Of a stretch of DNA of 64,000 nucleotides, positions 5,137 through 29,972 are shown piece after piece (within the stretch, counting starts at the first letter, position 1; each line of letters opens with the position of its first letter). A model generated the notes under the pieces. That model was not told the DNA's origin and ran no database searches. It saw only the letters and a program-made list of their open reading frames with translations. Position numbers and translations under genes: made by a program. This DNA comes from an uncultured Gemmatimonadota bacterium (GTDB lineage Bacteria; JAAXHH01), in contig OX638340.1 in assembly GCA_951812955.1 (NCBI GenBank), positions 1,856,001 to 1,920,000 of the forward strand, read 5' to 3'.

Positions 5137-6003
5137 ATGAACATTACTTTTCTCGGAACAGCGGCCGCGCCATCGATGCCGATCCCTTTCTGCGTCTGCG
5201 AGGTCTGTTCGGAAGCCAGAAGGGTTGGCGGCAAGAACCTCCGCCGGAGATCGTCGTTGGTAATCAACGATGATCTGCTGGTGGACATCGGTCCGGACAT
5301 CGCGGCCGCGTCATTCCAACAACAAATCTCGCTCGCCGGCATCGGCATATGCCTTCAAACGCACCCGCACGCGGACCATCTGGATATAGGATTTCTCCTC
5401 TCTAGACATACCGAATACGGGACGGAAGTCTCCGGCGACCTGTTGCTTGCTGGCTCAGATGAAACACTGCGCGTGATCGATGATTTTGTGAGTAAACAAA
5501 GTGCGTACGGGAGCATTTTCGATTCGGAAACACAGTCTGCGTTGAAGTTGAAACTTCTATCCCTTACGCCTTTTGAAGCATACAGTATAGATGGATACCA
5601 CATTACCGGATTTCCCGCCAGTCACGGCAACGATCAGGGGTTTCTACTATATTCAATTGTGCAGGGAGACCACGCCGTGTTCTATGGCACCGACACGTCG
5701 GTGCTGTCCGAAGAGGTCTGGGAACACCTTCAGCAGGAACGCACCATGTTTGACGTGGTCATACTCGATCACACCTACGGAATCGGTTTTGAATCCAGGC
5801 CGGCGGACCATCTGGCGTCGAAGGATGTTGCCGCCCACACGGATCGATTCCGCGAATGCGGATTGCTTAAGGACAACGGCTTGGTGTACGCGACTCACCT
5901 GTCTCATGAAGGGAACCTGGTGCACGATGAGTTGGATGAATACGCCAGGAATTTCGGCTATCGAGTGGCCTATGACGGGTTAAGTTTGAAGCTGGATGAC
6001 TGA
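5137..6003 (+). CDS. MBL-fold metallo-hydrolase, PhnP-like phosphodiesterase family
   Basis: HxHxDH motif (HPHADHLD). The N-terminal Cys cluster FCVCEVCSEARR resembles PhnP. Length 288 aa. Confidence 0.7.
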   Translation: MNITFLGTAAAPSMPIPFCVCEVCSEARRVGGKNLRRRSSLVINDDLLVDIGPDIAAASFQQQISLAGIGICLQTHPHADHLDIGFLLSRHTEYGTEVSGDLLLAGSDETLRVIDDFVSKQSAYGSIFDSETQSALKLKLLSLTPFEAYSIDGYHITGFPASHGNDQGFLLYSIVQGDHAVFYGTDTSVLSEEVWEHLQQERTMFDVVILDHTYGIGFESRPADHLASKDVAAHTDRFRECGLLKDNGLVYATHLSHEGNLVHDELDEYARNFGYRVAYDGLSLKLDD

Positions 6004-6078
6004 GTATCGCGCATCTGCGTTGTTCGCGTAACAACCCGGATAACAAATCGTTACTACCTATGGAAAAGACGATTTGAC

Positions 6079-7086
6079 GTGGAATTGGATATGGTATTCG
6101 AGTTGCCGAACCCCGAGTGGCTAAACCGCCAGTATGGTATCTGCTGGGACGGGCAGTACTGCGACATGAGCGGCAACTTTGCCCGTGTAGCCCGGATCGA
6201 GTCGAAGGATGACGGCAAATCGCTCGTCCTACGGATCTCCGACCCCGGTCGCATATCAAAAGAACGGCTGAAACGGGTACACTTGTACCAGACCCACGTG
6301 AATACGCAGGGTGTACGGACGGTCCTTCCGCTGAAGACCCTGGAAGGTGACACCGTTTCCACGACGGTACAGGGAATGACTATGGAGGTCTTTCCATTCA
6401 TCAAGGGGAGATCGCCCCAAAGAGGCAATTCCACGGACATTCGTCGGGTCGGTTGCGAATTAGGCAGACTGCACAGTGCCGGAACCGATTTCTCGCAACT
6501 GTACGACGAGGAAAGTCTGTTTCAAAACCATCTCGCAGTCAACCAGTTGATGGAAGAAGTCCGGGAGAAACGAGAGTCAACCAAGGATAAGATTTTTCAT
6601 GAACAGTTCATCGAGTACGTTGAGGAGACGGAACGCTGGATTGAAGCGATCGAAAGCCGGCGCAGCGGACTGGTTGAAACGGGTCTTCATATGGACACCG
6701 GCCCACAGAACATGATCATCGACAGTGAAGATGAACTCTGGTTTATTGACTGTGCCCATATGGTTAGAGGAAGGCGTGTGTTCGAGATATGCGTTACCCT
6801 GTACTACCTCGACCCCAGTTCTGGTAAACAGTTAGGTGAACCGGCCAGGTATCAACTCGCTGTTGAAAGCGTGGAAGCCGCCTTTCTGGATGGATACACG
6901 GATAACTGCGAACCTCCGTGGAGCGACCAGGAATCGGTGGCACTTGGGATCGAACGCATGCTTATGTTCATCCACGGAGTTACCTACTGGACGGAACGGT
7001 GGGATGAAGATACGGTCCTGAAAGAGTATGGCCGATGGAAAGAGTACCATACCGCCATGAGAGCAGAACTCAATCACATCGTGTAA
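6079..7086 (+). CDS. phosphotransferase enzyme family protein (APH/choline-kinase-like kinase fold)
   Basis: Brenner-type catalytic motif HMDTGPQNMII (HxDxxxxN) and downstream FIDCAHM (DFG-like). Length 335 aa. Confidence 0.55.
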   Translation: MELDMVFELPNPEWLNRQYGICWDGQYCDMSGNFARVARIESKDDGKSLVLRISDPGRISKERLKRVHLYQTHVNTQGVRTVLPLKTLEGDTVSTTVQGMTMEVFPFIKGRSPQRGNSTDIRRVGCELGRLHSAGTDFSQLYDEESLFQNHLAVNQLMEEVREKRESTKDKIFHEQFIEYVEETERWIEAIESRRSGLVETGLHMDTGPQNMIIDSEDELWFIDCAHMVRGRRVFEICVTLYYLDPSSGKQLGEPARYQLAVESVEAAFLDGYTDNCEPPWSDQESVALGIERMLMFIHGVTYWTERWDEDTVLKEYGRWKEYHTAMRAELNHIV

Positions 7087-7148
7087 TACGATTGGAAGAT
7101 CGATACGATGCAGGCAGGATTCACGCCGTGCGATAGAGAAACAACATT

Positions 7149-8054
7149 ATGACACCCATCAATCCAGACTACGTCCGACTGGTGACATCCGATATCGGCA
7201 ACTTCTGGCGGGCATACGACCTGTCGGAAGGCAAAACTACAGAAGAAAAGATCGAAATCTACAATACGGAATACCTGGCTAGAGGTAGCATTGGTCTCCG
7301 GGATTTTGTAGATGCCAGAATCAAGAGCGCCGAAGAGTTGGTCAAGGCTGTTGAGACTATGCCGAAGTTCTATGCTTCTATCAGAGAAAGTTCGAATCGG
7401 GTTCTGGAGATGACAGATCGAATTCGAAGCTATATGCACAACTTCAAGGCCCTTTATGACGATGCGATATTCCCGGACGTGTACTTTCTGATTGGTAGAA
7501 TGAACAGTGGCGGAACAACCTCGCAGAACGGTCTGCTCATAGGGACTGAGATACTATGTCGAACAGACGATACACCCGAAGACGAACTTCCACAGGTGTA
7601 TCGGAAACTTATCAAACCAATAAACTACCTGCCCTATGTGGTTATTCACGAACTCATACATCCCCAGCAGAAGTACAATTTCGAAGGCAACAAGCTCCTG
7701 GGGGGTTCCATAATGGAAGGAGCGGCCGATTTTCTCGGAGAACTTGCCAGCGGAGGACTATTGAACGAGCATCAGCACGAATATGGACGAGTTCACGAAA
7801 CCGAGCTATGGGAAGCGTTTTCTGAAGATATGCTTCAGGATGATTGGAGAAAATGGTTCTATAACTACTCTGATAATACAGGCGATAGGCCTCCCGATAT
7901 GGGATATTACATAGGCTACAAAATATGTGAATCATACTACGAGAAGATGGACGACAAACGGCAGGCCATACGAGACATCCTGGCTGTCAAGGATGCAACA
8001 GACGCACTTCGATTCCTGACAGAAAGTGGATACGGTAAATCGGGCCATCCATGA
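7149..8054 (+). CDS. putative Zn-dependent metallopeptidase (HExxH; DUF2268-like)
   Basis: HELIH motif about two-thirds of the way into the protein. The size and overall pattern are reminiscent of the DUF2268 predicted-protease family. There is no signal peptide. Confidence 0.4.
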   Translation: MTPINPDYVRLVTSDIGNFWRAYDLSEGKTTEEKIEIYNTEYLARGSIGLRDFVDARIKSAEELVKAVETMPKFYASIRESSNRVLEMTDRIRSYMHNFKALYDDAIFPDVYFLIGRMNSGGTTSQNGLLIGTEILCRTDDTPEDELPQVYRKLIKPINYLPYVVIHELIHPQQKYNFEGNKLLGGSIMEGAADFLGELASGGLLNEHQHEYGRVHETELWEAFSEDMLQDDWRKWFYNYSDNTGDRPPDMGYYIGYKICESYYEKMDDKRQAIRDILAVKDATDALRFLTESGYGKSGHP

Positions 8055-8072
8055 CTTCGACTTGCTCCTTGT

Positions 8073-9215
8073 TTGGCAATGAACGTGCTGCGGAATTGGA
8101 AAGGCAACATGAAATTAAAGTCCAATGAGTCTCTCGATCACCTGGTTCTGCAGCTGGAAGAACAGATCCCTCAGATTATGAGGGAAGCCAACGTTCCTGG
8201 TCTCTCGATCGCGTTGATACAGAATGTGGAAGCGGTTTGGACACATGGCTTCGGCGTAATGAACACGGAAACGCGTCAACCCGTGAAACCGGAAACCATA
8301 TTCGAAGGCTGTTCATTGAGCAAACCGATTTTCGCATATGCCGTGCTTAACCTCTGCGAGACGGGGATTCTGGACTTGGACAAGCCATTGTCCCATTACA
8401 GTCCTGATCCTTATGCGGCCGATGACCCCAGAGTTCAGATGATTACCATGCGACAAGCTCTTGCCCATACTTCCGGTTTACCAAACTGGCGCCCTGACTG
8501 CTGGGATTCAGAAGGATGGAATCCTGAAGGCAAACCTTTGCAAACCTATTTTGAACCCGGCGAACGTTTCAGCTATTCCGGTGAAGGATACATGTACGTG
8601 CAGCATGTGGTTGAGCATATTGCGGGTCAATCCGGCGAGTCTTATATGCAAAACGAGTTGTTCAATCCGGCGGGAATGGAGTTCAGCACGTATCTATGTA
8701 CATCGGATCAAGCCCCTGGTATGGCAACCGGGCATGATGAACACGGGCAACCGGTTAAAAAACAGATGTACAGGTCCATGTGTTCGGCCGCTAGCCTCCA
8801 TTCGACACCTTCGGACGTAGCTAAGATCTTGTGCGCCTGTATGCGACCCCGAACTGGTGCTTCCTGGCACATCAATGCCGAATTGGCGAAGGAAATGGCC
8901 ACCGCCCAGGTCCCGGTAAACGATTCTGCTTCGTGGCATGACAATTGGCCGGATGTCCCGGTAAAGGATGATCCCTTTGTTTCGTGGGGACTCGGTTGGG
9001 CTACTCAATACCATAATGGGCTAAAAGCTATCTGGCATTGGGGAGACAACGGTCCCTTCAAGGCATTTGCATTAGGGTATCCTGAAGAGGGAACAGGTTT
9101 AGTGGCCATGGCCAACGGATCAAATGGTTACAAGCTCTGGTCCGCGTTGTGCAGCATGGCATTGGGCGGAGAGTATCCCTGTATCGACTGGTTGGACCGG
9201 GTGGTGTATAGCTGA
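8073..9215 (+). CDS. serine hydrolase, beta-lactamase/transpeptidase-like family
   Basis: S-x-x-K active-site motif (SLSK) about 80 aa from the N-terminus. Class C beta-lactamase/esterase-like N-terminal pattern (…VPGLSIALIQN…GFG). Confidence 0.75.
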   Translation: MAMNVLRNWKGNMKLKSNESLDHLVLQLEEQIPQIMREANVPGLSIALIQNVEAVWTHGFGVMNTETRQPVKPETIFEGCSLSKPIFAYAVLNLCETGILDLDKPLSHYSPDPYAADDPRVQMITMRQALAHTSGLPNWRPDCWDSEGWNPEGKPLQTYFEPGERFSYSGEGYMYVQHVVEHIAGQSGESYMQNELFNPAGMEFSTYLCTSDQAPGMATGHDEHGQPVKKQMYRSMCSAASLHSTPSDVAKILCACMRPRTGASWHINAELAKEMATAQVPVNDSASWHDNWPDVPVKDDPFVSWGLGWATQYHNGLKAIWHWGDNGPFKAFALGYPEEGTGLVAMANGSNGYKLWSALCSMALGGEYPCIDWLDRVVYS

Positions 9216-9322
9216 TTGCGGGATACTAGTTCGAGACATTGAAGCCTCCGTTTTTGAGCGTAGTGAATTATGCCGTGCTGTAAAGTGGTCTCCAAATACT
9301 GCCTAAATTCAAAGTTGAAACA

Positions 9323-10087
9323 ATGGAAGAATCCCCTGATCGTCCAGTCGCGCTGGTTACAGGCGTGAGCCGAAAAATAGGCATCGGTGCAGCAATCTCT
9401 CTGGCCTTAGCCAAAACAGGTTGGGACGTGGCCACTTCTTACTGGCAACCGTACGATGCTTCCATGCCATGGGGTAGCGACGATACCGAAGCCGGAAAAA
9501 TCACTGATCAGATCCGTGGCTTCTCCGCAAGGACGGTTTCCATTGAAGCCGACCTTTCAGACACCGCGTCACCGAAGCGTATTTTTGATCGTATCGAAAG
9601 TTCACTTGGATCAGTAACCGCTCTAGTTATGGCTCATTGTCATTCGGTAGACAGCAGCATTAAGTCCACCACAATCGAGAGTTTCGATTTGCATTTTACT
9701 GTAAACGCTCGAGCTACATGGCTGCTGATCCGGGAGTTCGGGAGACGTTACCGAAATGAATATGGGCGGGGCCGTGTTATCTCGATAACCAGCGATCATA
9801 CTACGCACAACTTGCCTTACGGGGCCAGCAAAGGAGCCATGGATCGGATCGTCCTCGCGGCAGCGCAGGAATTCAGGGAACTGGGAGTCACGGCAAATGT
9901 TATCAATCCGGGTGGAACAGACACGGGTTGGATGTCGGATGATCTGAAGGAACGCGTACAAAGTGAGACACCGTTGGGCCGAATCGGCTTGCCTGCAGAC
10001 TGTGCCTGTCTTGTCAGTTTCCTCTGTTCCGAAGAGGGTGAATGGATCAACGGCCAGTTAATTTACAGCAATGGCGGTGTTCGGTAA
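9323..10087 (+). CDS. SDR family short-chain dehydrogenase/reductase
   Basis: N-terminal TGxxxxIG dinucleotide-binding motif (LVTGVSRKIGIG) and catalytic YxxxK (YGASK). Confidence 0.8.
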   Translation: MEESPDRPVALVTGVSRKIGIGAAISLALAKTGWDVATSYWQPYDASMPWGSDDTEAGKITDQIRGFSARTVSIEADLSDTASPKRIFDRIESSLGSVTALVMAHCHSVDSSIKSTTIESFDLHFTVNARATWLLIREFGRRYRNEYGRGRVISITSDHTTHNLPYGASKGAMDRIVLAAAQEFRELGVTANVINPGGTDTGWMSDDLKERVQSETPLGRIGLPADCACLVSFLCSEEGEWINGQLIYSNGGVR

Positions 10088-17325: not shown

Positions 17326-19845
17326 TCAGCACGACCTCAGAATCGCACCACCCCTCCGCAAAACATCAAATGAATGTTCCCGGCCGCCCACTCTCAACCT
17401 GAACCCACCGTCCTCCCGGCCAACCCGACCCTTCGCAGAACCGCTGCAAAATGCAAGGACCATGACGTCGTCGTCCGTACCCGCCACCAGCCTTGTCGAG
17501 GCCTCGGTTGCATCCGGTAGGAAGCTGACGAGGCTGCCGGCGGCGAGCCCGGAGGGTGCGTAGGGCACCTCCTCTGTCCGCCACTGAAGCCCTTTTCCAA
17601 GCACCGAAATAACCTCCACCAGACTTGATCCCGAGCCTAACCGGGCGCGGTCTCCCTCCAAGCCGCGCAGGTCCACGGGGTTCAGCTTGTAGGACAACTC
17701 GCCACTGCCCGTTTCCGGTCCCAATCCATCTGCCGGATCCACGATGAGCCGGCGTCGGCCCGGGCAGCGGAGGTTGATCAGCGCGATATCGCAGTCCGCG
17801 GAGACTCCGGGCGTCTGGATTGAACCGCCGAAGGCCAATGCGGTATTGGGCTTGACGTAGAACGTGCGCGGTTCTTCCCGAGAAGCGAGTCCCTGCGTGT
17901 CCCGGCCCATCTCGCCGAAGATAACCGGGTCGTCCAGACGACTCGACCTGTCATCAAGAACAATCTCCATCCATGGCTTGCCGCCGCGCCGGTTGAAGCC
18001 GCCCCAAGCGATTTGCACGTCGTGCCACGTGCCTACTTCCACAGTACCCGGCGCTTGTACGGAAACCAGGTTGTTGTTCTGGCTCTGCACATTGAATTGC
18101 AGTTTGCCGTCCGTATCAGCAACCAGGGCGAATGTGTTGACCCCAGTCCCAAGATGCCCGCCGACCCCGTTCCCGGCGTTGAACAGCACCCTGAGGCCGC
18201 TCGCGTGTCCCCGCAACCGGAAACGAAGACGCAGGCGTCCGTCGTTGGCGTTAAACCATGGTTTGGCGTCGTATTGCAGGGCGTCGCCGCCACTTACCCG
18301 AATAAGCGGACTAACGTCCTTTACTACCCTAACGCCGCGTGGGCGACGCCGCAGGGCCACGAGCAGGATAGGATCGTCCCCGCGTGACAGCCAGTATTCG
18401 TGCTCGGTTCGCCGGGAGGAGACGCACAGCCGCTGCCAGTGCTTCATGCGTTTCAGGCCGCCCGGCAAGGCGACGGTCTCGTTCTGGCCGCCCACGCAGG
18501 GCAGGCTGCCGCAAGTCACCGGCTGGGCCTCGAAGGCACTTATGGTACGCAGCAGCGGACTGCCCGCCCACTGAACGTGCAGGCTCATGAAGTTGGCGGC
18601 CAGGCCGCCGGCGTATCCGCTGACGCTTAAAATCGCCGCGTTGGGTTCGTGACCGCTGCGCATCACGACGAATCGGCCCGTGTACATGTCGTAACTACCC
18701 GCCAGCGAAGTCACTTGCCGCGACCTGGTCGAGCGGAAAGCGGGATCGTAATAGCAGTAGGCGTACGGTCCGTAGGAAATCATGCACTCCGCGGTCGAAC
18801 CCTTGACGCCCATTCCGAATCGATACAGCCGACCCAGGCGCGGATCGGAAAGGGCGACATCGCGCAGCCTACCGTCTCCGGCCTCCTGGGCCAGCCTCAG
18901 GAGCACCGGCGAACAATTATCCAGCTGACCGCCTAGTACGACGTTGGAATTGATGGGATAGTACAGCTCGTCGGGGATTTCCCGAGGCGCCGTCCAGTGA
19001 GCGCGGAACCACGCAAGCGGACGACGAAACCGGTCAGGAACCTCGCTCATCAGATCGATACCGGTAACATTGCGCAGCGCATCGGCGAAATGCAGGAGCC
19101 ACAGGTTTTCAAAACCCCAGAAGGTGGGTCCGTCTACGGGCTCGCCACCGGGACCGCAGCCGTGGGGCAGGACGCCGATCCGAAAGCGATCGATAACCGC
19201 CTGCACCCATGCTTCCGCGCGGGGATGCTCACCCAGCAGATGAACCGCGGCTACCCCGAAGTGCCCATAGTCGACGACGGTGTGGTGCCCGCCTGCCTTG
19301 AAGTGCCGTCGTTCGTCCACATACAACCACCAGCGATCCATCAACTCCACGAGACTGTCACGGACCTGACGCTTTTCGGCCTCGAGCAATACTTCGTCCA
19401 TCAGGTCGAGGGCAAGCGCGAAAGCGTGCATGTAGCGGTTGGCAGTGTAGAAGTGCTCCTCCACGTGATCGCCGTGGTCCCAGCCCGCCGCGGCCCGCAG
19501 CCAGGCGCGGGCCCGTCCAAGCCAGCGCGGGTCGTCCGTGAGTCGCCAGGCGAAGGCGTAATTTTCGATCAGGGCCGTGGCCTGCATGGCGGTGTAAAAG
19601 GTAAGGTAGAGTTGGTGATTTGGGTGGGGGCTGTGCATTCGGCGCGGGACCCGTCGCCAAGGCCGCTGACCTGCATACAGCTCGCAGTCGTCCAGAAGTC
19701 TGGAGAGGATGCGGCGGCGAACCGGATCGGCCGGTGGCTTGAACTCGAAACCGGGATCGTCGACTGGCCTGAACAACCGGGGTCTTTCGTGGCGGATAAC
19801 CGAGACACGAGAATGATCCGGCGAGTTGGATTGTATGGCGGTCAT
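17326..19845 (-). CDS. heparinase II/III-like (polysaccharide-lyase-like alpha/alpha toroid) protein with C-terminal LamG/ConA-like domain
   Basis: 839 aa with no signal peptide. The N-terminal two-thirds resembles alginate-lyase/heparinase II/III folds. The C-terminal ~150 aa is beta-rich with the W-x-hydrophobic pattern of LamG-like domains. Assignment is by pattern only. Confidence 0.35.
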   Translation of the reverse strand: MTAIQSNSPDHSRVSVIRHERPRLFRPVDDPGFEFKPPADPVRRRILSRLLDDCELYAGQRPWRRVPRRMHSPHPNHQLYLTFYTAMQATALIENYAFAWRLTDDPRWLGRARAWLRAAAGWDHGDHVEEHFYTANRYMHAFALALDLMDEVLLEAEKRQVRDSLVELMDRWWLYVDERRHFKAGGHHTVVDYGHFGVAAVHLLGEHPRAEAWVQAVIDRFRIGVLPHGCGPGGEPVDGPTFWGFENLWLLHFADALRNVTGIDLMSEVPDRFRRPLAWFRAHWTAPREIPDELYYPINSNVVLGGQLDNCSPVLLRLAQEAGDGRLRDVALSDPRLGRLYRFGMGVKGSTAECMISYGPYAYCYYDPAFRSTRSRQVTSLAGSYDMYTGRFVVMRSGHEPNAAILSVSGYAGGLAANFMSLHVQWAGSPLLRTISAFEAQPVTCGSLPCVGGQNETVALPGGLKRMKHWQRLCVSSRRTEHEYWLSRGDDPILLVALRRRPRGVRVVKDVSPLIRVSGGDALQYDAKPWFNANDGRLRLRFRLRGHASGLRVLFNAGNGVGGHLGTGVNTFALVADTDGKLQFNVQSQNNNLVSVQAPGTVEVGTWHDVQIAWGGFNRRGGKPWMEIVLDDRSSRLDDPVIFGEMGRDTQGLASREEPRTFYVKPNTALAFGGSIQTPGVSADCDIALINLRCPGRRRLIVDPADGLGPETGSGELSYKLNPVDLRGLEGDRARLGSGSSLVEVISVLGKGLQWRTEEVPYAPSGLAAGSLVSFLPDATEASTRLVAGTDDDVMVLAFCSGSAKGRVGREDGGFRLRVGGREHSFDVLRRGGAILRSC

Positions 19846-20016: not shown

Positions 20017-22422
20017 ATGCTCCAAAACTACCTCACCATAGCCATTCGCAACCTGCTCAGGTATCCCGCCTACACGCTCATCAACATCGTGGGGCTCGCG
20101 ATCGGCCTGGCGGCCTGCATGCTGATCCTGCGCTACGTCTGGGACGAGATGAGCTACGATCGGTATCATCCACACGCAGATCGGGTTTACCGGGTAGTCG
20201 ATGACATAGAAAGCGCGGGGCAGACAGTCCAGACGGCGGGATCTCCTTTGGGGTGGGGGCCCGCTCTGAAGCGTGATTTTCCCGAAATCGAGCTTTTCGC
20301 CCGGGTGCGGGGCACGACATCCGTCTGGTTTATCATGCATGAAGAGAAACGTTACTATGAGAAAAAGGTCATCTGGGCGGATGCGGCTCTGCTCGACATG
20401 TTTTCCATCCCCTTTGTCGCCGGCAATCCCCGTACCGCGCTGACCGAACCGTATTCGATCGTGATCTCGGAGGATATGGCCTTCAAGTATTTCGGTGGCG
20501 AGGACCCCATGGGGAAAGTCCTCAGGGGGGACAATGTCTGGGATTTCACGGTGACCGGCGTCATGCGCAACATACCGGCCAATTCCCATCTGCGTCCTGA
20601 TATGATCATGTCCCTTGTGACACGGAATGCCATTTTTGCAAATGACCTCGATGAATGGGAGATGCACGAGAATCGTTATACTTACATCAGGCTGCATGAA
20701 AACGCCTCTCCGGATGCCCTGGAAGCTCAGCTGCCCGCCTTCGTGGAACGAAATAAAACCGGGCGGTTCCGTGATTCGAGCAAAGTGTTGAGACCGTCTC
20801 TGCAGCCCCTGGTGGACATTCACCTCCATTCGCACAGGGACAGCGAGCTCGAGCCCAACGGAGACATCCGCTACGTAACGCTCTTCATGATTATCGCCTT
20901 CCTGATTCCTATCATCGCCTGCATCAACTTCGTGAACCTGGCCACGGCACGATCGGCCATGCGCGCCAGGGAGGTGGGCGTACGCAAGGTTATGGGGGCC
21001 AATCGCCCGCAGCTACTGGGGCAGTTCCTGGGCGAAGCCGTCGTCATGGCGGGACTTGCCATGATCGTCGCGGTCGCGCTTGTACATCTAGCCCTGCCCG
21101 GCGTAAACGTGCTGGCCGGCAAGCAACTGGATTTTGCTCTTTCGGACGGCTGGGTGTTGGGAGCGCTGATCGCTGGAACCATCGTTATCGCAATGGCTGC
21201 CGGTAGCTATCCCGCAACCTACCTATCTGGTTTCCTGCCCACCGATGTACTGAAAGGGAATCTGAAGTCAGGAACGCAAGGCATGGGATTGCGGCGGACC
21301 CTGGTGGTGATCCAGTTCGTCATGTCCATCTTTCTGCTGGTCAGCACCGCCGTCATCTACGACCAGCTCGAGTACATCCAGGACATGAGGCTCGGTTTCA
21401 ATAAAGAGCATGTAATGGTGATCCCGATTACCGGCCAGGCTCAGCGCGAAAACACCCCGGTGCTGAGACAACGCGTCGCGCAGTTGCCCGGCGTGGTAGG
21501 GATAGCGACGACCGATGGCGTCCCGGGCGAACTCTCACCGCGGATTATGGCCGTCCGTTCCGATGAGATGAGCCCCGAGGACAACCTGATTGTGTCTGTG
21601 TTCTCCTCAGATGATCAGTTCCTGGAGGTCATGGAAATCGGCCTGGTGGCAGGCCGGAACTTTCAGGCCGAGTGGGGCAGGGATACAACCATGGTAGTCC
21701 TGCTGAACGAGACCGCTGCCCGTAAGCTGGGTTGGGATGCGCCGCCCGACGCAATAGGTATGCTTGTGGAATGGATCGAGTACCGCGGTACGAAGGGACG
21801 CGTCCGGGGTGTTGTGGAGGATTTTCATCTGCAATCGATTCATGAGGAAATCGAACCGATCGTATACATACACTATCCCATCGACTTCAGCGACATACTC
21901 ATCCGAATCAGGCCGGAAAACGTACCGGATACCATCACACGGATCCAGGAAGTGTGGCGGGAAGTCGAACCCCTGTATCCTCTGGCATATACGTTTCTCG
22001 ACGAAGATTTCGACAGCCTCTACCGTGCCGAACGCCAACTGGGTACGGTATTCGCGGTCTTCGCCTTTCTCGCGATCTTCGTGGCGTGCCTGGGCCTGCT
22101 TGGACTGGCTTCCTTCTCCATCCAGCAGCGGACCAGGGAGATTGGAATCCGCAAGGTACTCGGCGCTACCGTTTCGGACATCGTCCTGCTGCTCTCAAAG
22201 GATTTCATGAAGTATGTACTACTGGCCAATGTGATCGCCTGGCCCCTGGCATACCTTGCCATGGCACAATGGCTGCAGAACTATGCCTATGCGGCGGAAA
22301 TCAACTTTGCGTGGTTTATCGCGGGAGGCCTCGTTGCGGTCGCCATCGCCTGGCTTACGATCGGGGCGCACGCGCTGGCCGCCGCGGGCAGAAACCCGGT
22401 TAACGCACTAAGGCAGGGGTGA
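20017..22422 (+). CDS. ABC transporter permease, FtsX/MacB-like double-domain family (801 aa)
   Basis: N-terminus MLQNYLTIAIRNLLRYPAYTLINIVGLAIGLAACMLIL. Two FtsX modules. Close paralog of the 1..2142 product. Confidence 0.85.
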   Translation: MLQNYLTIAIRNLLRYPAYTLINIVGLAIGLAACMLILRYVWDEMSYDRYHPHADRVYRVVDDIESAGQTVQTAGSPLGWGPALKRDFPEIELFARVRGTTSVWFIMHEEKRYYEKKVIWADAALLDMFSIPFVAGNPRTALTEPYSIVISEDMAFKYFGGEDPMGKVLRGDNVWDFTVTGVMRNIPANSHLRPDMIMSLVTRNAIFANDLDEWEMHENRYTYIRLHENASPDALEAQLPAFVERNKTGRFRDSSKVLRPSLQPLVDIHLHSHRDSELEPNGDIRYVTLFMIIAFLIPIIACINFVNLATARSAMRAREVGVRKVMGANRPQLLGQFLGEAVVMAGLAMIVAVALVHLALPGVNVLAGKQLDFALSDGWVLGALIAGTIVIAMAAGSYPATYLSGFLPTDVLKGNLKSGTQGMGLRRTLVVIQFVMSIFLLVSTAVIYDQLEYIQDMRLGFNKEHVMVIPITGQAQRENTPVLRQRVAQLPGVVGIATTDGVPGELSPRIMAVRSDEMSPEDNLIVSVFSSDDQFLEVMEIGLVAGRNFQAEWGRDTTMVVLLNETAARKLGWDAPPDAIGMLVEWIEYRGTKGRVRGVVEDFHLQSIHEEIEPIVYIHYPIDFSDILIRIRPENVPDTITRIQEVWREVEPLYPLAYTFLDEDFDSLYRAERQLGTVFAVFAFLAIFVACLGLLGLASFSIQQRTREIGIRKVLGATVSDIVLLLSKDFMKYVLLANVIAWPLAYLAMAQWLQNYAYAAEINFAWFIAGGLVAVAIAWLTIGAHALAAAGRNPVNALRQG

Positions 22423-22433
22423 TTTCGCGGAAA

Positions 22434-23024
22434 TTACACGACGTTCCGAGACTGGGTATCCGAGGCGTTCCAGCAAGTCTCGATCACATTAAAATCAGGT
22501 CGGGACAGGACAACGTAGGAAGGGAGTCCCAACTGTTTCCACATCGCGAATGGGTCCTGGCGAGTAATGCGGCTCACATACAGGCTCAGAACGGTCCCAT
22601 GGGTAATGAGCGCCAGGTCTTCTTGCGGAAATCGTTCTAACAGTCCGTCGACGGACTTTGAGAATCTTCTGTACGCTGTATCCGCGGTCTCCTCGCCAAA
22701 AACCAGCTCCGCAGGTTGAGCGTAGAAACGGCTGATCGACTGCTCAAAGCACTCCTTCTCCAGGAAACCGACACTCCTACGCTCATGTTCCTGCAATCCC
22801 TCGATGACTTCTACCGGAACATTCAGTCTGTGCGCTGAAATATTGGCTGTTTCTATGGCTTTAGGTTCGTTGCTACTGAATATCATATCCAGATTATACG
22901 GTCCCAGTTTCTCAGCCAAGATCCGGGAGCGGACTTGACCTTCTTCAGACAAACGCCATTCCCTGGAAGGAACCGCAGGATCGATCTCAGGCAACGAATG
23001 CTTCACCAGAACCAGTACCGGCAT
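22434..23024 (-). CDS. histidine phosphatase superfamily protein (SixA/PGAM-like), divergent
   Basis: N-terminal VLVLVKHSLPE sits at the position of the RHG motif (K-H-S variant). A second His region LALITHGTVL is present. Length 196 aa. Confidence 0.45.
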   Translation of the reverse strand: MPVLVLVKHSLPEIDPAVPSREWRLSEEGQVRSRILAEKLGPYNLDMIFSSNEPKAIETANISAHRLNVPVEVIEGLQEHERRSVGFLEKECFEQSISRFYAQPAELVFGEETADTAYRRFSKSVDGLLERFPQEDLALITHGTVLSLYVSRITRQDPFAMWKQLGLPSYVVLSRPDFNVIETCWNASDTQSRNVV

Positions 23025-23046
23025 CCTTTCGGTACCTCCTTCTATA

Positions 23047-24153
23047 CTACGGCGTATTCACCGGAAAGTGCTTGATCATTCTGATGATCTTCAACTCTGT
23101 TCCCGACGGCATCTCCGAACTACCATGGTGCAGTTGTCGAAAGCCGTTTTTCTCGTAGAACTCCACGGCTGCAAGCGAAGAATTGAGTACGATACGCTCC
23201 GCGCCTGCGCGCATGGCCTGGCATTCCGCTGTTCTGTAAAGTGCCGAACCGACTCCTTTTTTACTCGCCCTGCCGGAAACGAAAACCGCGGCATTGTACT
23301 CAGTACCCTTTGCCCGATGCACCTCGGAGAATCCCAGTAATCCCGTGGCATCTTCGGCCACATAGATTGTCGCTCCCTGCGCAACGGCACCAAGGTACTT
23401 CTCTCGAGATATCGGAGCGATCCACTCCTCGAGAACCTCCATGGCGTAGTAAGGTCCGCAATGGGATCTTATCGATTCTTCGTGTATGATTGCTAGTTCG
23501 TCAAAGTCGGCCTCAGTCGCGCGGCGGACACAGTAGGAGCGTTTAGCCATTTCGACCATCTGCGTGAGTGCGCGGGGATGCTGGTGGTTTTCGAGCGCTT
23601 TTAAAACCCGTGCGGAAGCGTCCTCCGGTGCTTCGGCGGAAGTATCCACCTCGACGTCATAGACCGCGTACCTGTGCACCTGTTCGTACTGGTTTCTCGC
23701 CAGGCCTATAGTCCGATCTCCCCTCGCGACTTCCCTTCGTTCCAATTCATCGAGCGGACAGAAAACCTTCACAAACAGCACATCGAAAGGGCTGAGAATT
23801 TTCACACGATGACGTAACAGATCCAGGACATCGAACTCTTGCCCTGCCGGCAGATGCTGAGGTGGAGCGATAACATCGTCGACGATCACATTGTTACCGC
23901 TGCGGGCCAAGGCCGCGATGCACTCCGCAAACCCCATCTCGAAGTAACGGATGTCGGGGACCAACCCGCGCTTGATCTGTTTGCGCGAAGGAATCTCGTC
24001 GAACAGGTTGATGGAAAAATAGAGGAACGGTTCCTGCAGCACGTCGAGCAACGCCTCAGCCAGCGTCGTCTTCCCAGCGCTCGACGATCCATTGAGATAA
24101 ATCACACTGCCGCTGCGACTAGGGGTTTTCAAGTGCTCAACGTGGGATTTCAT
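23047..24153 (-). CDS. fusion protein: chloramphenicol-phosphotransferase-like P-loop kinase (N-terminal) + GNAT N-acetyltransferase (C-terminal)
   Basis: The N-terminal ~190 aa aligns by eye with Streptomyces CPT (YLNGSSSAGKT, LQEPFLYF, IVDDV, REVARGDRTIGLARNQ, YDVEVDTS). The C-terminal ~170 aa carries GNAT motif A (GVGSALYRTAE…EFYEKNGFR). The ATG at 24153 overlaps the upstream GNAT stop as ATGA. The longest ORF extends to a TTG at 24177. Confidence 0.7.
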   Translation of the reverse strand: MKSHVEHLKTPSRSGSVIYLNGSSSAGKTTLAEALLDVLQEPFLYFSINLFDEIPSRKQIKRGLVPDIRYFEMGFAECIAALARSGNNVIVDDVIAPPQHLPAGQEFDVLDLLRHRVKILSPFDVLFVKVFCPLDELERREVARGDRTIGLARNQYEQVHRYAVYDVEVDTSAEAPEDASARVLKALENHQHPRALTQMVEMAKRSYCVRRATEADFDELAIIHEESIRSHCGPYYAMEVLEEWIAPISREKYLGAVAQGATIYVAEDATGLLGFSEVHRAKGTEYNAAVFVSGRASKKGVGSALYRTAECQAMRAGAERIVLNSSLAAVEFYEKNGFRQLHHGSSEMPSGTELKIIRMIKHFPVNTP

Positions 24154-24761
24154 TCTGAAGTCCATTCGCTGGGCCAACTTCCGAGTCGTCGTTCAAAGTA
24201 CAGTTCTAAACCGTCCTCTTCATCAATATGTGAGCCGATTTCCCGAAATCCCATCGACCGAGCCATGCCCAGGGATGGGATGTTACCTGGGTTGATAGAC
24301 AGGACGAAACAACGTTGACCATGTTCTTCATACGCCCATTTCATCAACGCAAGCGCCGCTTCGTTGGCGATGCCCCGTCTGCGGAAGGGTTCTCCAATTT
24401 CGTAGCCGAGTTCTACCCCATCTGCCGCTACATTTCGCAGATCCTCGGGACCGGGCTCGGAGTGGAAGCCGATCCGACCACACATAGTCTGTGACTGTTG
24501 AATGACTATGGCCCGCAACAACCAGGGCTGTACCTCTGGACTGGCATTGAGTTGTCTTAGCCGATTTCGTAAAGTACGGGTGTTGAGAACAAGGTCTATC
24601 GGAATCTTAAAGCCGGCGATCTTCTCTGCCAGCAGTTGATTCCGGGCTATCAACGCTTCCAGCAGTCGCGGGGCCATCGGAACCAATTCCAGCCGACGTG
24701 AGGTAATGATGTGGATTATTGGCTGTTCTCCGTTCGTCACCAGTGTTACAGAGAGGAACAA
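24150..24761 (-). CDS. GNAT N-acetyltransferase, RimJ/RimL (Acetyltransf_3) type
   Basis: The N-terminal TSRRLELVPMAP pattern and the core GRIGFHSEP…ELGYEIGEPFRRRGIANEAALALMKWAYEE…NPGNIPSLGMARSMGF match the RimL family. Confidence 0.75.
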   Translation of the reverse strand: MFLSVTLVTNGEQPIIHIITSRRLELVPMAPRLLEALIARNQLLAEKIAGFKIPIDLVLNTRTLRNRLRQLNASPEVQPWLLRAIVIQQSQTMCGRIGFHSEPGPEDLRNVAADGVELGYEIGEPFRRRGIANEAALALMKWAYEEHGQRCFVLSINPGNIPSLGMARSMGFREIGSHIDEEDGLELYFERRLGSWPSEWTSE

Positions 24762-24826
24762 TTAGACCGATGCCGTAAGTATAATGGCAGCACGCGTCCG
24801 TTACCAACCATTCCCTGCCGATCCGC

Positions 24827-26245
24827 CTACTCCCTGATTCCACACGCCTCGTCCGTCAGCACGTCGTAGTGATGTATGTACTTGACGCCGTCGATCACGA
24901 GCCGATCGGTTTGTGGTAGATCCTCCTCCCACGTCATTTCGACTCCCTGCAAATGGGGTGGCTTCTCCCGCTTGCCCCAGTGATTGCCGTTGTAGCGCCG
25001 GAACAGCAGCGTGCGGCCAGCGCGGGTGACGTACGCCATGACCAACACCGCTCGTTCGGACGTATCTTCGTCGATATCGAAAACCCGCATGCATTCGAAT
25101 GTCCGATCGCCGATGCACACCGTGTAGAGGCCCTGTGAAAACACCAGCGGCGCATCCGATTTCTTAATGAACGTTCCATCCGGTTGTTCCGTCAGGTAAT
25201 CCCGGTCTTCGACCAGACGGGGCGTCATCCCGAAATCCCATCCAAAGTCCTCGTCCAGGCAGGTCAGAAGTTCCCTGGTTCCATCGGATTTCATGCTCTC
25301 GACGGCCAGCCAATGCACCTCCGTCTCTTCCAGGCGGCCCCAGACCCGGGTATGGCGATCCCTCGTTTCCGGATCATGGTTGAGCGTTAGGAGACCCTCC
25401 CGGTCTGGACGGCGTTGTTCATCCATCTCGATCTCTACGCATGGTCTTCCGTGTATGATGGCGCGCCGCGTTGCAACCATGTCCTTGACCTCGGTTAACT
25501 TCCAGGCCGAACCATCCCGCGTAGGCTCGTAATCCGCCCATCGGACCTGATCACCGATTTCGGGTACGATGAACCACCAGGACAGCTCCCGAAGATCTAT
25601 GGAAAATGGAGTTGCCGTACTTATCTCGATGGATATATCGGGCCGGTAATTGGGAAAGGGTACAGTCGTAGCTTTTGTGTCGTCGCTCATGGCCATGCTC
25701 CTTCTATTGGTGGTTACACCCAGTTCGATTCGAACCATGTCCCGTCCGTGAGACAGCCGCCGCTCGATGGTTCCCGGTGGGCAGCGATGACGGGCCGCAA
25801 TTTCCGCTATGCTCAATCCATCCAGGTAGAACGACCTCAGGGCCGCTTGTTCCTTATCGGGCACGTGATCGAAGGCTTCGACCACATCCTTCGCTGCCCG
25901 CCGTTGACGGGCCGTCGGCACACCGAATCGATTAATCATCGTTGCCAGTTCCTCGGAATCGACGAAGCGCTCTCGCCGTTGTGTAGAGCGCATGAAGTCG
26001 ACGCAGCGGTTGCGCGCAACCTGGTACAGCCAGGCGCGCACGTTTCTCGGTGATCGAACACGCAACCCCAACCAGGCATGAACGAGCGTCTCCTGTAGCA
26101 CGTCCTCTACCGCCTCCACCGACCCGATACGATCCCGGATCAATGCGGCCAGAGATCGCTCGTAGCGCCGGATCAGGGCCACGAAGGCCCGTTCGTCGCC
26201 GGTCCGGATCTGTTGAACAAGTACCTGGTCACTGAGGAACCCCAT
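24827..26245 (-). CDS. ECF-family RNA polymerase sigma factor with ~290-aa soluble C-terminal extension
   Basis: Sigma-70 region 2 (VQQIRTGDERAFVALIRRYERSL…LQETLVHAW) and region 4 (LRSFYLDGLSIAEIAARHRCPPGTIERRLSHGR) lie in the first ~180 aa. The remaining ~290 aa has no predicted TM helix and no recognisable domain. Confidence 0.75.
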   Translation of the reverse strand: MGFLSDQVLVQQIRTGDERAFVALIRRYERSLAALIRDRIGSVEAVEDVLQETLVHAWLGLRVRSPRNVRAWLYQVARNRCVDFMRSTQRRERFVDSEELATMINRFGVPTARQRRAAKDVVEAFDHVPDKEQAALRSFYLDGLSIAEIAARHRCPPGTIERRLSHGRDMVRIELGVTTNRRSMAMSDDTKATTVPFPNYRPDISIEISTATPFSIDLRELSWWFIVPEIGDQVRWADYEPTRDGSAWKLTEVKDMVATRRAIIHGRPCVEIEMDEQRRPDREGLLTLNHDPETRDRHTRVWGRLEETEVHWLAVESMKSDGTRELLTCLDEDFGWDFGMTPRLVEDRDYLTEQPDGTFIKKSDAPLVFSQGLYTVCIGDRTFECMRVFDIDEDTSERAVLVMAYVTRAGRTLLFRRYNGNHWGKREKPPHLQGVEMTWEEDLPQTDRLVIDGVKYIHHYDVLTDEACGIRE

Positions 26246-26425
26246 TAGATCGTTCTCCCTTCATCTAACAGGGCGATGTTGGCGGGGGAAAGGTTCACGG
26301 AGTTTGGAAAAGGTGACTACGTGGAGTATTGGAATGAAGCCATGAGGTACGGTCAGTTTGGCTTCTTCTGACTGAGGTGGAATAGGCTTCGTATCAGCTT
26401 ACCCCAGGATGAAAGACCAGCGAAC

Positions 26426-26785
26426 TCACCCAGATCCTGCTACAGGCCAATCAGCACCAGCCCCTGGTCCGATAACATGCCAATGCATGTGTGGCGTAAC
26501 TCCTGGCGCCGCCGCATTGGCACGCACATAGAATCCCCTGCCATCCAGCAGACCGGTGGACTTTGCAGTCTGCTGGACAGCACGCACCATGGAAGAGAGC
26601 AGATCCCCATCCAGGGCGGCCTCATCCATAAGCCCAGCAACGTGGGTTTTAGGTACCACTACCACATGGACCTGGGCTACGGGTCGCGGGTGGCGGAACG
26701 CCAATACCAGATTGTCCTCATAAATCCGTTTCACGTCGAGCTTTCCTGAGAATACATCCTCGCAATACCAATCTCGTCGCGCCAT
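26426..26785 (-). CDS. HIT (histidine triad) family nucleotide hydrolase/phosphoramidase
   Basis: HIT motif HMHWHVIG (HxHxHxx) near the C-terminus. Length 119 aa. Confidence 0.8.
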   Translation of the reverse strand: MARRDWYCEDVFSGKLDVKRIYEDNLVLAFRHPRPVAQVHVVVVPKTHVAGLMDEAALDGDLLSSMVRAVQQTAKSTGLLDGRGFYVRANAAAPGVTPHMHWHVIGPGAGADWPVAGSG

Positions 26786-29156: not shown

Positions 29157-29972
29157 TTGGGTATCGGAAAGGAGCTTCATATGATCATCCACAAACTGGT
29201 CGCAGCCACTTGCATGATCGGTCTGGGAATGTACGGCTGTTCCTCTTCAGAGATTCCTGAGGACCCGCCGGTCCAGACCGAGCAGGTCGCATGGGGATAC
29301 GGTGACGAGAACGGACCGGACGTCTGGGGCCAGTTAAGCCCGGATTTCGCCTTATGTGCCGAGGGATCGCTGCAATCTCCGATCGACCTTGCGAATGCCA
29401 CGTCGTCGGAACTTCCCGAAATCGTCTTCAACTATAGTCCGTCGGCGGTGAATATCCACCATAACGGCCACACGATTGAAGTGGCGCCCACCGGGGAAAA
29501 CTCGATTGAGATCGATGGTGTACGTTACGCGCTTCTGCAGTTCCATTTCCACGCTCCGAGCGAGCACTCGGTGGACGGCCGGTTATTCGACATGGAAATG
29601 CACCTCGTGCACCGGAACGAAGAAGGCACCCTGGCAGTTATCGGAGTTCTGATCGAGCAGGGCGCCGACAATGCGACGTTCGGTCCCCTGTGGACGAATA
29701 TGCCGGACACGCCCGGCGTAACGAACAGCGTAGAGAACGCCACCGTTGATGCCGGCGACTTGCTGCCGGGCGACAGGCAGACCTATCGCTATGACGGCTC
29801 GTTGACTACACCGCCGTGTTCAGAAGGTGTCAAATGGAACGTGCTGACAACGCCCATTGAACTGTCCGAACCGCAGATCGCCGCTTTCAAAGCAGTTGTC
29901 CATGACAACAATCGGCCGGTACAGCCGCTGAATGAGCGTGAACTGCTTTCGGATGGTGCTGGAGAAGGCTAG
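29157..29972 (+). CDS. alpha-class carbonic anhydrase, secreted (possible lipoprotein)
   Basis: Signal peptide ending …GMYGCSSS. Alpha-CA hallmarks: WGY…GP..W, SPIDL, zinc-ligand histidines in QFHFHAPSEH and HLVH. Confidence 0.85.
   Translation: MGIGKELHMIIHKLVAATCMIGLGMYGCSSSEIPEDPPVQTEQVAWGYGDENGPDVWGQLSPDFALCAEGSLQSPIDLANATSSELPEIVFNYSPSAVNIHHNGHTIEVAPTGENSIEIDGVRYALLQFHFHAPSEHSVDGRLFDMEMHLVHRNEEGTLAVIGVLIEQGADNATFGPLWTNMPDTPGVTNSVENATVDAGDLLPGDRQTYRYDGSLTTPPCSEGVKWNVLTTPIELSEPQIAAFKAVVHDNNRPVQPLNERELLSDGAGEG

Follow-up and report, generated by a model that had tools for sequence, protein, structure and literature searches.

Gene Organization of the Locus

The region described here belongs to a 64,000-nucleotide (nt) stretch of contig OX638340.1 (positions 1,856,001 to 1,920,000, forward strand) from an uncultured Gemmatimonadota bacterium (assembly GCA_951812955.1). 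This stretch is called the window below and is numbered from its first letter. The subject is the gene of an extracytoplasmic function (ECF) sigma factor and the small enzyme genes that adjoin it on both sides. Five co-directional genes occupy positions 22434–26785, all on the minus strand, as had been reported in the preliminary description of this DNA. The family names given there to their products are likewise correct by Pfam matches, and all five assignments are valid at the Pfam-family level only. A run of five same-strand genes is nothing unusual by itself.

Read along the minus strand, the first gene codes for a HIT protein (26785..26426; 119 residues; PF01230, E 5e-15). It is followed by the ECF sigma gene (26245..24827; 472 residues; Sigma70_r2, r4_2 and TIGR02937 matches) and by the gene of an Acetyltransf_3 GNAT (24761..24150; 203 residues; PF13302, E 9e-15). 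The fourth gene (24153..23047; 368 residues) codes for a fusion, designated kinase::GNAT, of a domain resembling chloramphenicol phosphotransferase (CPT) (PF07931, E 3e-43, residues 15–187) with a second GNAT domain (residues ~205–345, with Acetyltransf_10/7/1 matches at residues 237–341). The last gene codes for a histidine phosphatase of branch 1 (His_Phos_1; 23024..22434; 196 residues; PF00300, E 5e-17). NCBIfam equivalog cut-offs were reached for none of CPT, RimI/RimL-type GNATs, HinT or CobC. The ATGA overlap that had been noted between the GNAT and kinase::GNAT genes is present (ATG 24153..24151, TGA 24152..24150), and a gap of 22 nt separates the kinase::GNAT gene from the phosphatase gene. 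The cluster faces a convergent gene for a MacB/FtsX-type permease (20017..22422, plus strand; 801 residues; MacB_PCD and FtsX domains). Its opposite flank carries divergent GNAT, methyltransferase, HAD and carbonic-anhydrase genes.

Gene Turnover between the Sigma and Permease Genes

A total of 87 loci, designated by L numbers, was collected from contigs found through the fusion protein and by searching a single genome of each species with the sigma alignment. The clade of the window comprises 19 distinct loci whose sigma factors are at least 75% identical, and gene presence in them was determined by tblastn. Full-length copies of the sigma gene are found in 19/19 of these loci and of the FtsX permease gene in 16/19, and a HIT gene adjoins the sigma gene in 14/19. 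Presence of the other genes is patchy: the histidine phosphatase occurs in 7/19, the CPT domain in 6/19 (one copy lying 6.7 kb upstream of sigma), the Acetyltransf_3 GNAT in 5/19 as a full-length copy and in one more as a partial one, and the fused GNAT domain in 4/19. All five genes together are found in 0/19. The GNAT–kinase coupling recurs in L004 (called genes 7468–8004 and 8001–9107), and the tblastn matches of the two genes abut in L001/2 and L008.

No gene for any of these enzymes lies less than 10 kb from sigma in the more distant sigma loci (L024–L087, n = 64); what follows sigma there is in most cases a convergent or lineage-specific gene. De novo clustering of open reading frames (ORFs) also yielded lineage-specific sigma neighbors only in the distant lineages, with an ORF caller that was crude and picked some antisense ORFs in high-GC loci. 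The conserved five-gene linkage proposed earlier is thus not borne out, either in the clade or in L024–L087. The genes are scattered in relatives, an outcome that the preliminary description had itself named as speaking against a module, and the module idea therefore largely fails. As a separate observation, genes for ABC-F-like double-ATPases (~600–750 residues), often paired, are found a few kb from sigma in L028–L036, L037–L046 and L048–L067. These loci are labelled Spirochaetia and Latescibacterota, and the position of the ABC-F-like genes is variable and not adjacent to sigma.

The permease gene forms the conserved right-hand border of a variable slot that begins at the end of the sigma gene. 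The slot is empty in L018, L021 and L023, where the permease gene lies 2 nt past the sigma gene. In other relatives the slot or its surroundings hold GFA, glyoxalase or Lactamase_B genes, or genes for uncharacterized proteins of 64, 144 and 343–353 residues. Replacements are also seen on the HIT side of sigma, where a NUDIX gene, a gene for an uncharacterized 203-residue protein or an AP-endonuclease-2-family gene stands at or beside the HIT position; in L001/2 it is the NUDIX gene that takes the place of HIT.

The closest relatives, L009 (OY762445.1) and L010, are ~95.7% identical to the window in nucleotide sequence on both flanks of a gap (95.6–95.8% on each side in the blastn comparison of the window with L009). 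They do not have window segment 24735..23094 (1.64 kb), to which the greater part of the GNAT and kinase::GNAT genes belongs, and carry 12 nt of filler instead. Since the segment is gone and the fusion gene persists in its final 46 nt, L009 and L010 share a deletion of GNAT and kinase::GNAT. In L012 and L013 the fused GNAT domain survives as a remnant only, and L007 and L008 carry a CPT kinase that has no GNAT domain. Where the genes are present, the ratio of nonsynonymous to synonymous substitution rates (dN/dS) is 0.05–0.36 in all sufficiently diverged comparisons: 0.05–0.10 for HIT, 0.13–0.28 for GNAT and 0.12–0.24 for kinase::GNAT. The HIT pair of the window and L009 (dS 0.011) has too little divergence for its dN/dS to be informative. 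Purifying selection acts on them where they are present; these genes are dispensable accessories and not pseudogenes.

The slot has also undergone exchange, as suggested by discordant synonymous divergence: when the window is compared with L001, dS is 0.22–0.29 for the fusion and phosphatase genes (window 22434–24153 versus L001:8001–9717) and 0.76 for the adjacent sigma gene. The comparison suggests that the downstream segment was recombined or transferred between lineages more recently than sigma.

The Predicted ECF Promoter and Its Reach

The 250 nt found 5′ of the sigma start were aligned for 85 sequences. The motif GTGAACCTTT-N13-CGCCYTGT occurs in 73/85 loci, across phyla, with invariant spacing and ~50 nt before the sigma start codon. 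In the window the predicted ECF-type promoter (26265..26300, minus strand) consists of −35 element GTGAACCTTT (26298..26289), a 13-nt spacer and −10 element CGCCCTGT (26275..26268). This layout, as predicted from the sequence, is the usual one for ECF sigma factors (an AAC-type −35, 17 nt and a CG-type −10). A position weight matrix built from 62 unique sites was used to scan the window and 1.7 Mb of related loci. Exactly one match was found in the window, even at scores far below those of the training sites. The strong sites in the related loci are sigma promoters, the sequences in front of paralogues that consist of the sigma C-terminal domain (CTD) only (four loci), and the second sigma copy of L025. 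Weaker matches of 18–19 bits occur in L042 and L084, versus at least 24.5 bits for the training sites.

No copy of the motif was found upstream of HIT, GNAT or the kinase gene at thresholds far below the training scores. The promoter that had been expected upstream of both the sigma and HIT genes is therefore found at the first and not at the second. HIT lies outside the ECF transcription unit, because it is upstream of the promoter and has no motif copy of its own. No terminator-like site or stable hairpin was found between sigma and GNAT, and for this reason GNAT, kinase::GNAT and phosphatase are plausibly read through from the sigma promoter; co-transcription of the three with sigma is probable on this basis. 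The earlier placement of the whole cluster under the ECF sigma factor can accordingly be kept for the three downstream genes, which may be driven by the ECF promoter, and has to be given up for HIT.

A further conserved stretch, TGT[TG]AGATGAAG, directly follows the −10 element (window 26246–26268; 5′ untranslated regions of L001–L036) and is common to the window clade and the Spirochaetia loci. Its conservation exceeds the needs of a promoter hexamer; it could be a start-site/discriminator element or an operator.

The Sigma Factor and Its C-Terminal Domain

The sigma factor belongs to the ECF type (sigma-70 group 4): it has the sigma-2 and sigma-4 domains only and neither region 1.1 nor region 3. 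These domains account for ~180 of its 472 residues (residues 1 to ~180; 25706..26245, minus strand). The remaining ~290 residues form a separate conserved domain, which the preliminary description overlooked (residues ~186–472; 24830..25690, minus strand). This CTD has no Pfam or NCBIfam match; at E ≤ 0.01 no Pfam family was found for the CTD of the window or for seven stand-alone relatives. Its 129 homologs are nearly all sigma fusions of 455–486 residues (mean column identity 67%). An exhaustive HMMER search with the CTD gave 287 cluster representatives, many of them stand-alone proteins of ~255–285 residues. The AlphaFold2 model of the CTD is all-beta and confident (predicted local distance difference test 89.8, predicted template modelling score 0.88). 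The predicted fold is nearest to the RseB, MucB and LolA families, with weak likeness, and Foldseek gave no match in the PDB at E ≤ 0.001. Residues H265, C269, C385, H431, H458 and C468 of the sigma factor vary hardly or not at all. Among its neighbors (HIT, GNAT) no anti-sigma domain was found, and an exact-sequence look-up of the window sigma protein returned no record.

Family members also occur in duplicate beside sigma genes. In L053, L055, L063 and L067 (~9150–9900) a gene for a stand-alone CTD paralogue (273–278 residues, ~32–34% identical) lies directly upstream of sigma, and in these four loci the ECF motif stands before the paralogue. L025:12743–14131 has two sigma-CTD genes separated by ~2.7 kb, both preceded by a promoter of their own, and in L075:11414–12265 a second family member directly follows sigma.

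The carriers of this sigma family are metagenome-assembled genomes (MAGs) of at least six groups of phylum or class rank, their labels being Gemmatimonadota, Latescibacterota, Spirochaetia, Gammaproteobacteria/Pseudomonadales, Binatia and Armatimonadetes. Many of their isolate names (APA_, RHO, COS, IRC and SB06xx bins) correspond to sponge species covered by a MAG study of sponge microbiomes (PMC8163846); the link to sponges is one of names. Literature searches found no description of an ECF group of sponge symbionts.

The Enzymes Encoded beside the Sigma Gene

The fusion of kinase and GNAT is confined to ~13 proteins with at least 73% identity, and the next matches are single-domain CPT-like proteins at ~40% identity. 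The kinase domain scores 148 bits against PF07931 (cut-off 22), has the Walker A sequence GSSSAGKT and aligns to Streptomyces venezuelae CPT (PDB 1QHX/1GRQ) with 66–68 bits over 158 residues. The CPT equivalog model NF033114 gives 85.3 bits, versus a cut-off of 250. The position of CPT Asp37 is occupied by Asn in 8/8 members of the fusion clade and by Asp in all 13 further sequences of the alignment (12 single-domain CPT-like homologs and the distant fusion P0024). Asp37 is the catalytic general base in the CPT structures. The kinase domain further has a deletion of ~25 residues after this position and an insertion of 12 residues further on. Because of the Asn at Asp37 and the missing segment of ~25 residues, the kinase is not a chloramphenicol phosphotransferase orthologue. 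The CPT-type phosphorylation of chloramphenicol suggested earlier is thus unsupported, on account of the equivalog score, the substituted residue and the remodelled substrate region.

The GNAT encoded by the gene next to sigma has only generic GNAT similarity to its closest solved structures (E 0.004–0.01). The second-best match, 2fck_A (E 0.0048), carries the annotation putative ribosomal-protein-serine acetyltransferase, no structure match is named RimL or MccE, and NCBIfam scores are far below the cut-offs. RimL and the acetyltransferases of the MccE C-terminal-domain type inactivate processed microcin C. The RimL/MccE-type activity that the preliminary description ascribed to GNAT has no backing in similarity beyond the GNAT family, and nothing in the analysis indicates substrates of the aminoacyl-nucleotide kind that it proposed as the target.

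The HIT protein scores 56 bits against PF01230 (cut-off 21.5) and has an intact histidine triad HxHxHxx (“HMHWHVI”). Its best solved homologs are HIT/HINT proteins, which places it in the Hint branch. The closest solved homolog of the phosphatase is the uncharacterized protein Atu0299. A screen for anti-phage defence genes with PADLOC gave as its sole match that of HIT to ThsC (E 9e-6), which was dismissed as a family-level similarity.

The Fusion Gene as an Integron Cassette in Other Genomes

A homolog of the fusion protein with 77–80% protein identity is encoded in L006, a locus of a 5.3-Mb metagenomic contig (ena:ERZ21830265:contig_7). There the fusion gene is a single ORF between attC sites 7891–7982 and 9103–9202 (~90 nt), which have R″ ATAAC and R′ GTTAT boxes and stems with many compensatory changes. 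These sites belong to an array (L006:1–17080) in which at least 18 attC sites of 74–100 nt separate co-oriented small genes coding for methyltransferases, GrpB, HAD, GNAT, NUDIX, DUF3626, cupin and CPT::GNAT. No integrase gene was found in the 17 kb that make up the L006 locus. At L003:6600–14000 an array in decay adjoins an IS21 element; the fusion gene there has a weak upstream attC (38.5 bits) and, downstream, a remnant with an internal truncation that was seen by eye. Literature searches found no description of a CPT::GNAT cassette.

The existence of the gene as a single-gene cassette in L006 fits a small-molecule-modifying role of kinase::GNAT. The dS of the fusion gene relative to the L006 cassette is 0.64, equal to that found for syntenic L004/L005 (0.63–0.65). 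Judged from these sequence relationships, the fusion gene is a mobile accessory gene. An integron origin at the window locus was considered and rejected: a covariance model of attC built from 21 sites of L006 and L003 has its best match in the window at E 0.45, and it has none in the 19 clade loci.

Interpretation of the Locus

The locus is best read as a conserved, self-activating sigma gene beside a turnover slot for accessory enzymes, and not as a five-gene functional module; we put the probability of this reading at roughly 0.6. The sigma gene would be transcribed from its own sigma-specific promoter, GTGAACCTTT-N13-CGCCYTGT, and the activity of its product would be gated by the fused CTD, possibly through a hydrophobic ligand, if other ECF sigma factors with extensions are a guide. 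In the slot, which extends from the sigma stop codon to the permease gene, small enzyme genes have been inserted, exchanged and deleted among close relatives. Its content in the window is the coupled pair of GNAT and kinase::GNAT followed by the histidine phosphatase. This trio, probably co-transcribed with sigma by read-through, would be made of inducible passengers and would not represent the conserved regulon of sigma, and HIT is an upstream neighbor outside the sigma transcription unit. The kinase::GNAT protein most likely phosphorylates and acetylates a small molecule.

Some observations weigh against this reading. At least one of the GNAT, kinase and phosphatase genes, remnants counted, is kept downstream of sigma in 12/19 clade loci. 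A weak sigma-70-like match (9/12 positions) lies 5′ of GNAT (24807..24778), and the search for further ECF promoter copies in this genome covered 64 kb only. With Asn in place of Asp, the kinase may have a different chemistry or may have lost its activity.

The retention in 12/19 loci, always at the same position, is also what speaks for an ancestral operon of GNAT, kinase::GNAT and phosphatase under the sigma promoter, in which one metabolite or xenobiotic would be phosphorylated, acetylated and dephosphorylated in a cycle, and which is now being lost. Such an eroded sigma–GNAT–kinase::GNAT–phosphatase operon would be a weak form of the module first proposed. It accounts for the tight spacing (ATGA overlap and 22-nt gap) and for the purifying selection where the genes are present, and deletions that leave remnants point to loss and not to gain. 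The distribution of the genes is less easily accommodated: kinase::GNAT stands alone in L018, L003 and L006, L009–L013 have the phosphatase and no kinase, and the reverse holds for L004, L005 and L008. Unrelated genes are interleaved in the slot as well, and the dS discordance suggests piecemeal exchange. We regard this operon as unlikely, though worth keeping in view.

The module in its original form is improbable: there the five genes would be an inducible resistance or detoxification unit under ECF control, directed at an antibiotic of the nucleotide or aminoacyl-nucleotide kind, for example processed microcin C or its analogues. The activities known at the family level are compatible with it, the GNAT and kinase genes show translational coupling, the ECF promoter precedes three of the enzyme genes with no terminator in between, and kinase::GNAT is borne on a cassette elsewhere, like many resistance genes. 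Against this stand the complete absence of the five-gene set from the 19 loci and the loss of two of the genes in the closest relatives. HIT is outside the ECF unit and has no motif, the sigma family is unlinked to these enzymes in all other lineages, and there is no equivalog-level match to CPT, RimL/MccE or HinT, with Asn at CPT Asp37.

That the enzymes are ordinary housekeeping or house-cleaning genes, related neither to each other nor to sigma and adjacent by chance, is less probable still: the neighboring genes are also generic small-enzyme genes (GNAT, methyltransferase, HAD, carbonic anhydrase) and relatives have NUDIX, TPMT-family methyltransferase and glyoxalase genes in variable content, but such genes would not be lost in the closest relatives or travel as integron cassettes, and the GNAT–kinase coupling recurs in several genomes. 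Universal conservation of the genes across the clade, which would count against this explanation, is not observed.

Under the preferred reading of a sigma gene beside a turnover slot, the enzymes are dispensable, patchily distributed passengers whose family names are no proof of chloramphenicol or microcin C resistance. Accessory genes would have been caught behind an inducible promoter and then eroded, which calls for care with annotation by guilt of association. The main value of the locus lies in an ECF sigma factor that has a sharp promoter and is fused to an unclassified domain of ~285 residues. Because the promoter motif is sharp and conserved across phyla, the regulon is directly predictable in complete genomes that carry this sigma factor. 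If the concentration in sponges across phyla is true, the sigma family is a candidate symbiosis-linked signalling device. A more speculative extension, which we hold only tentatively and consider rather doubtful, is that the sigma factor founds an undescribed ECF group whose LolA/RseB-like domain is a cytoplasmic sensor of a hydrophobic molecule, possibly derived from the host or sponge. The group and its promoter would have spread horizontally among sponge symbionts, any downstream gene becoming inducible.

Other Features of the Window

The permease at the border of the slot is one of three MacB/FtsX-type paralogues encoded in the window (25–2142, 2701–5106 and 20017–22422). An 839-residue protein with a sub-threshold DUF4962 match only (17326–19845, minus strand) is the product of a gene that adjoins the FtsX permease gene in nearly every locus of the clade. 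Positions 5137–9215 hold more detoxification-like genes, coding for Lactamase_B_2, an APH-family phosphotransferase and a PF00144 beta-lactamase-family protein. The guanine-plus-cytosine content of window positions 2–12 kb is 0.50–0.53, versus 0.57–0.64 in the rest. On the other side of the cluster, at the margin of the variable region, lies the gene of a carbonic anhydrase (29157–29972, plus strand). The enzyme is of the eukaryotic (alpha) type and has a hydrophobic leader at its N-terminus, and its gene is found in some relatives only. No Rfam family was matched over 19–31 kb of the window.

Comparison with Known Systems

The enzymes of the slot resemble several known proteins in part. With the CPT of S. 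venezuelae the kinase shares the P-loop kinase fold, GxSSAGK(S/T) and the conserved DD, RGDR and YD.EVDT blocks, and it differs by its C-terminal GNAT, the Asn in place of Asp37 and the ~25-residue deletion. The domain combination recalls AAC(6′)-Ie/APH(2″)-Ia, a bifunctional antibiotic-modifying enzyme that carries acetyltransferase and phosphotransferase in one polypeptide and is coded by a mobile accessory gene. The APH of that enzyme is protein-kinase-like, whereas the kinase of the window fusion is a P-loop CPT-like one and the order of the two domains is reversed. Among integron cassettes, the L006 fusion gene fits the known organization, being an ORF between attC sites; the window copy has no attC. 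The Acetyltransf_3 family is common to the window GNAT, RimL and the MccE C-terminal domain, from which the window protein differs in having neither a specific match nor an mcc-type context.

The closest parallels to the sigma factor are the ECFs with C-terminal extensions. The extensions described in two papers (PMC7826278, PMC8999054) are SnoaL-like, TPR, Cys-rich, DUF1835 or transmembrane. ECF41, ECF56, ECF294 and ECF295 (SnoaL-like), ECF42 (TPR) and ECF238 (CorE-type, Cys-rich) share with the window protein a sigma-2/sigma-4 core with an extension of more than 50 residues at its C-terminal end. The likeness extends to the missing adjacent anti-sigma gene and to an autoregulatory promoter, predicted for the window protein, with an AAC-containing −35, a CG-containing −10 and 17 nt from AAC to CG (PMC7826278, PMC8999054). 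By analogy with the extensions of ECF41, ECF42 and CorE-type factors, the CTD of the window protein probably gates sigma activity (PMC7826278, PMC8999054). It is set apart from the SnoaL-like, TPR, Cys-rich CorE-type and DUF1835 extensions on the basis that it has no Pfam match to them. The window CTD thus differs from the known ECF extensions in being a domain of ~285 residues, all-beta and devoid of SnoaL, TPR or Cys-rich motif, that also occurs as a stand-alone protein.

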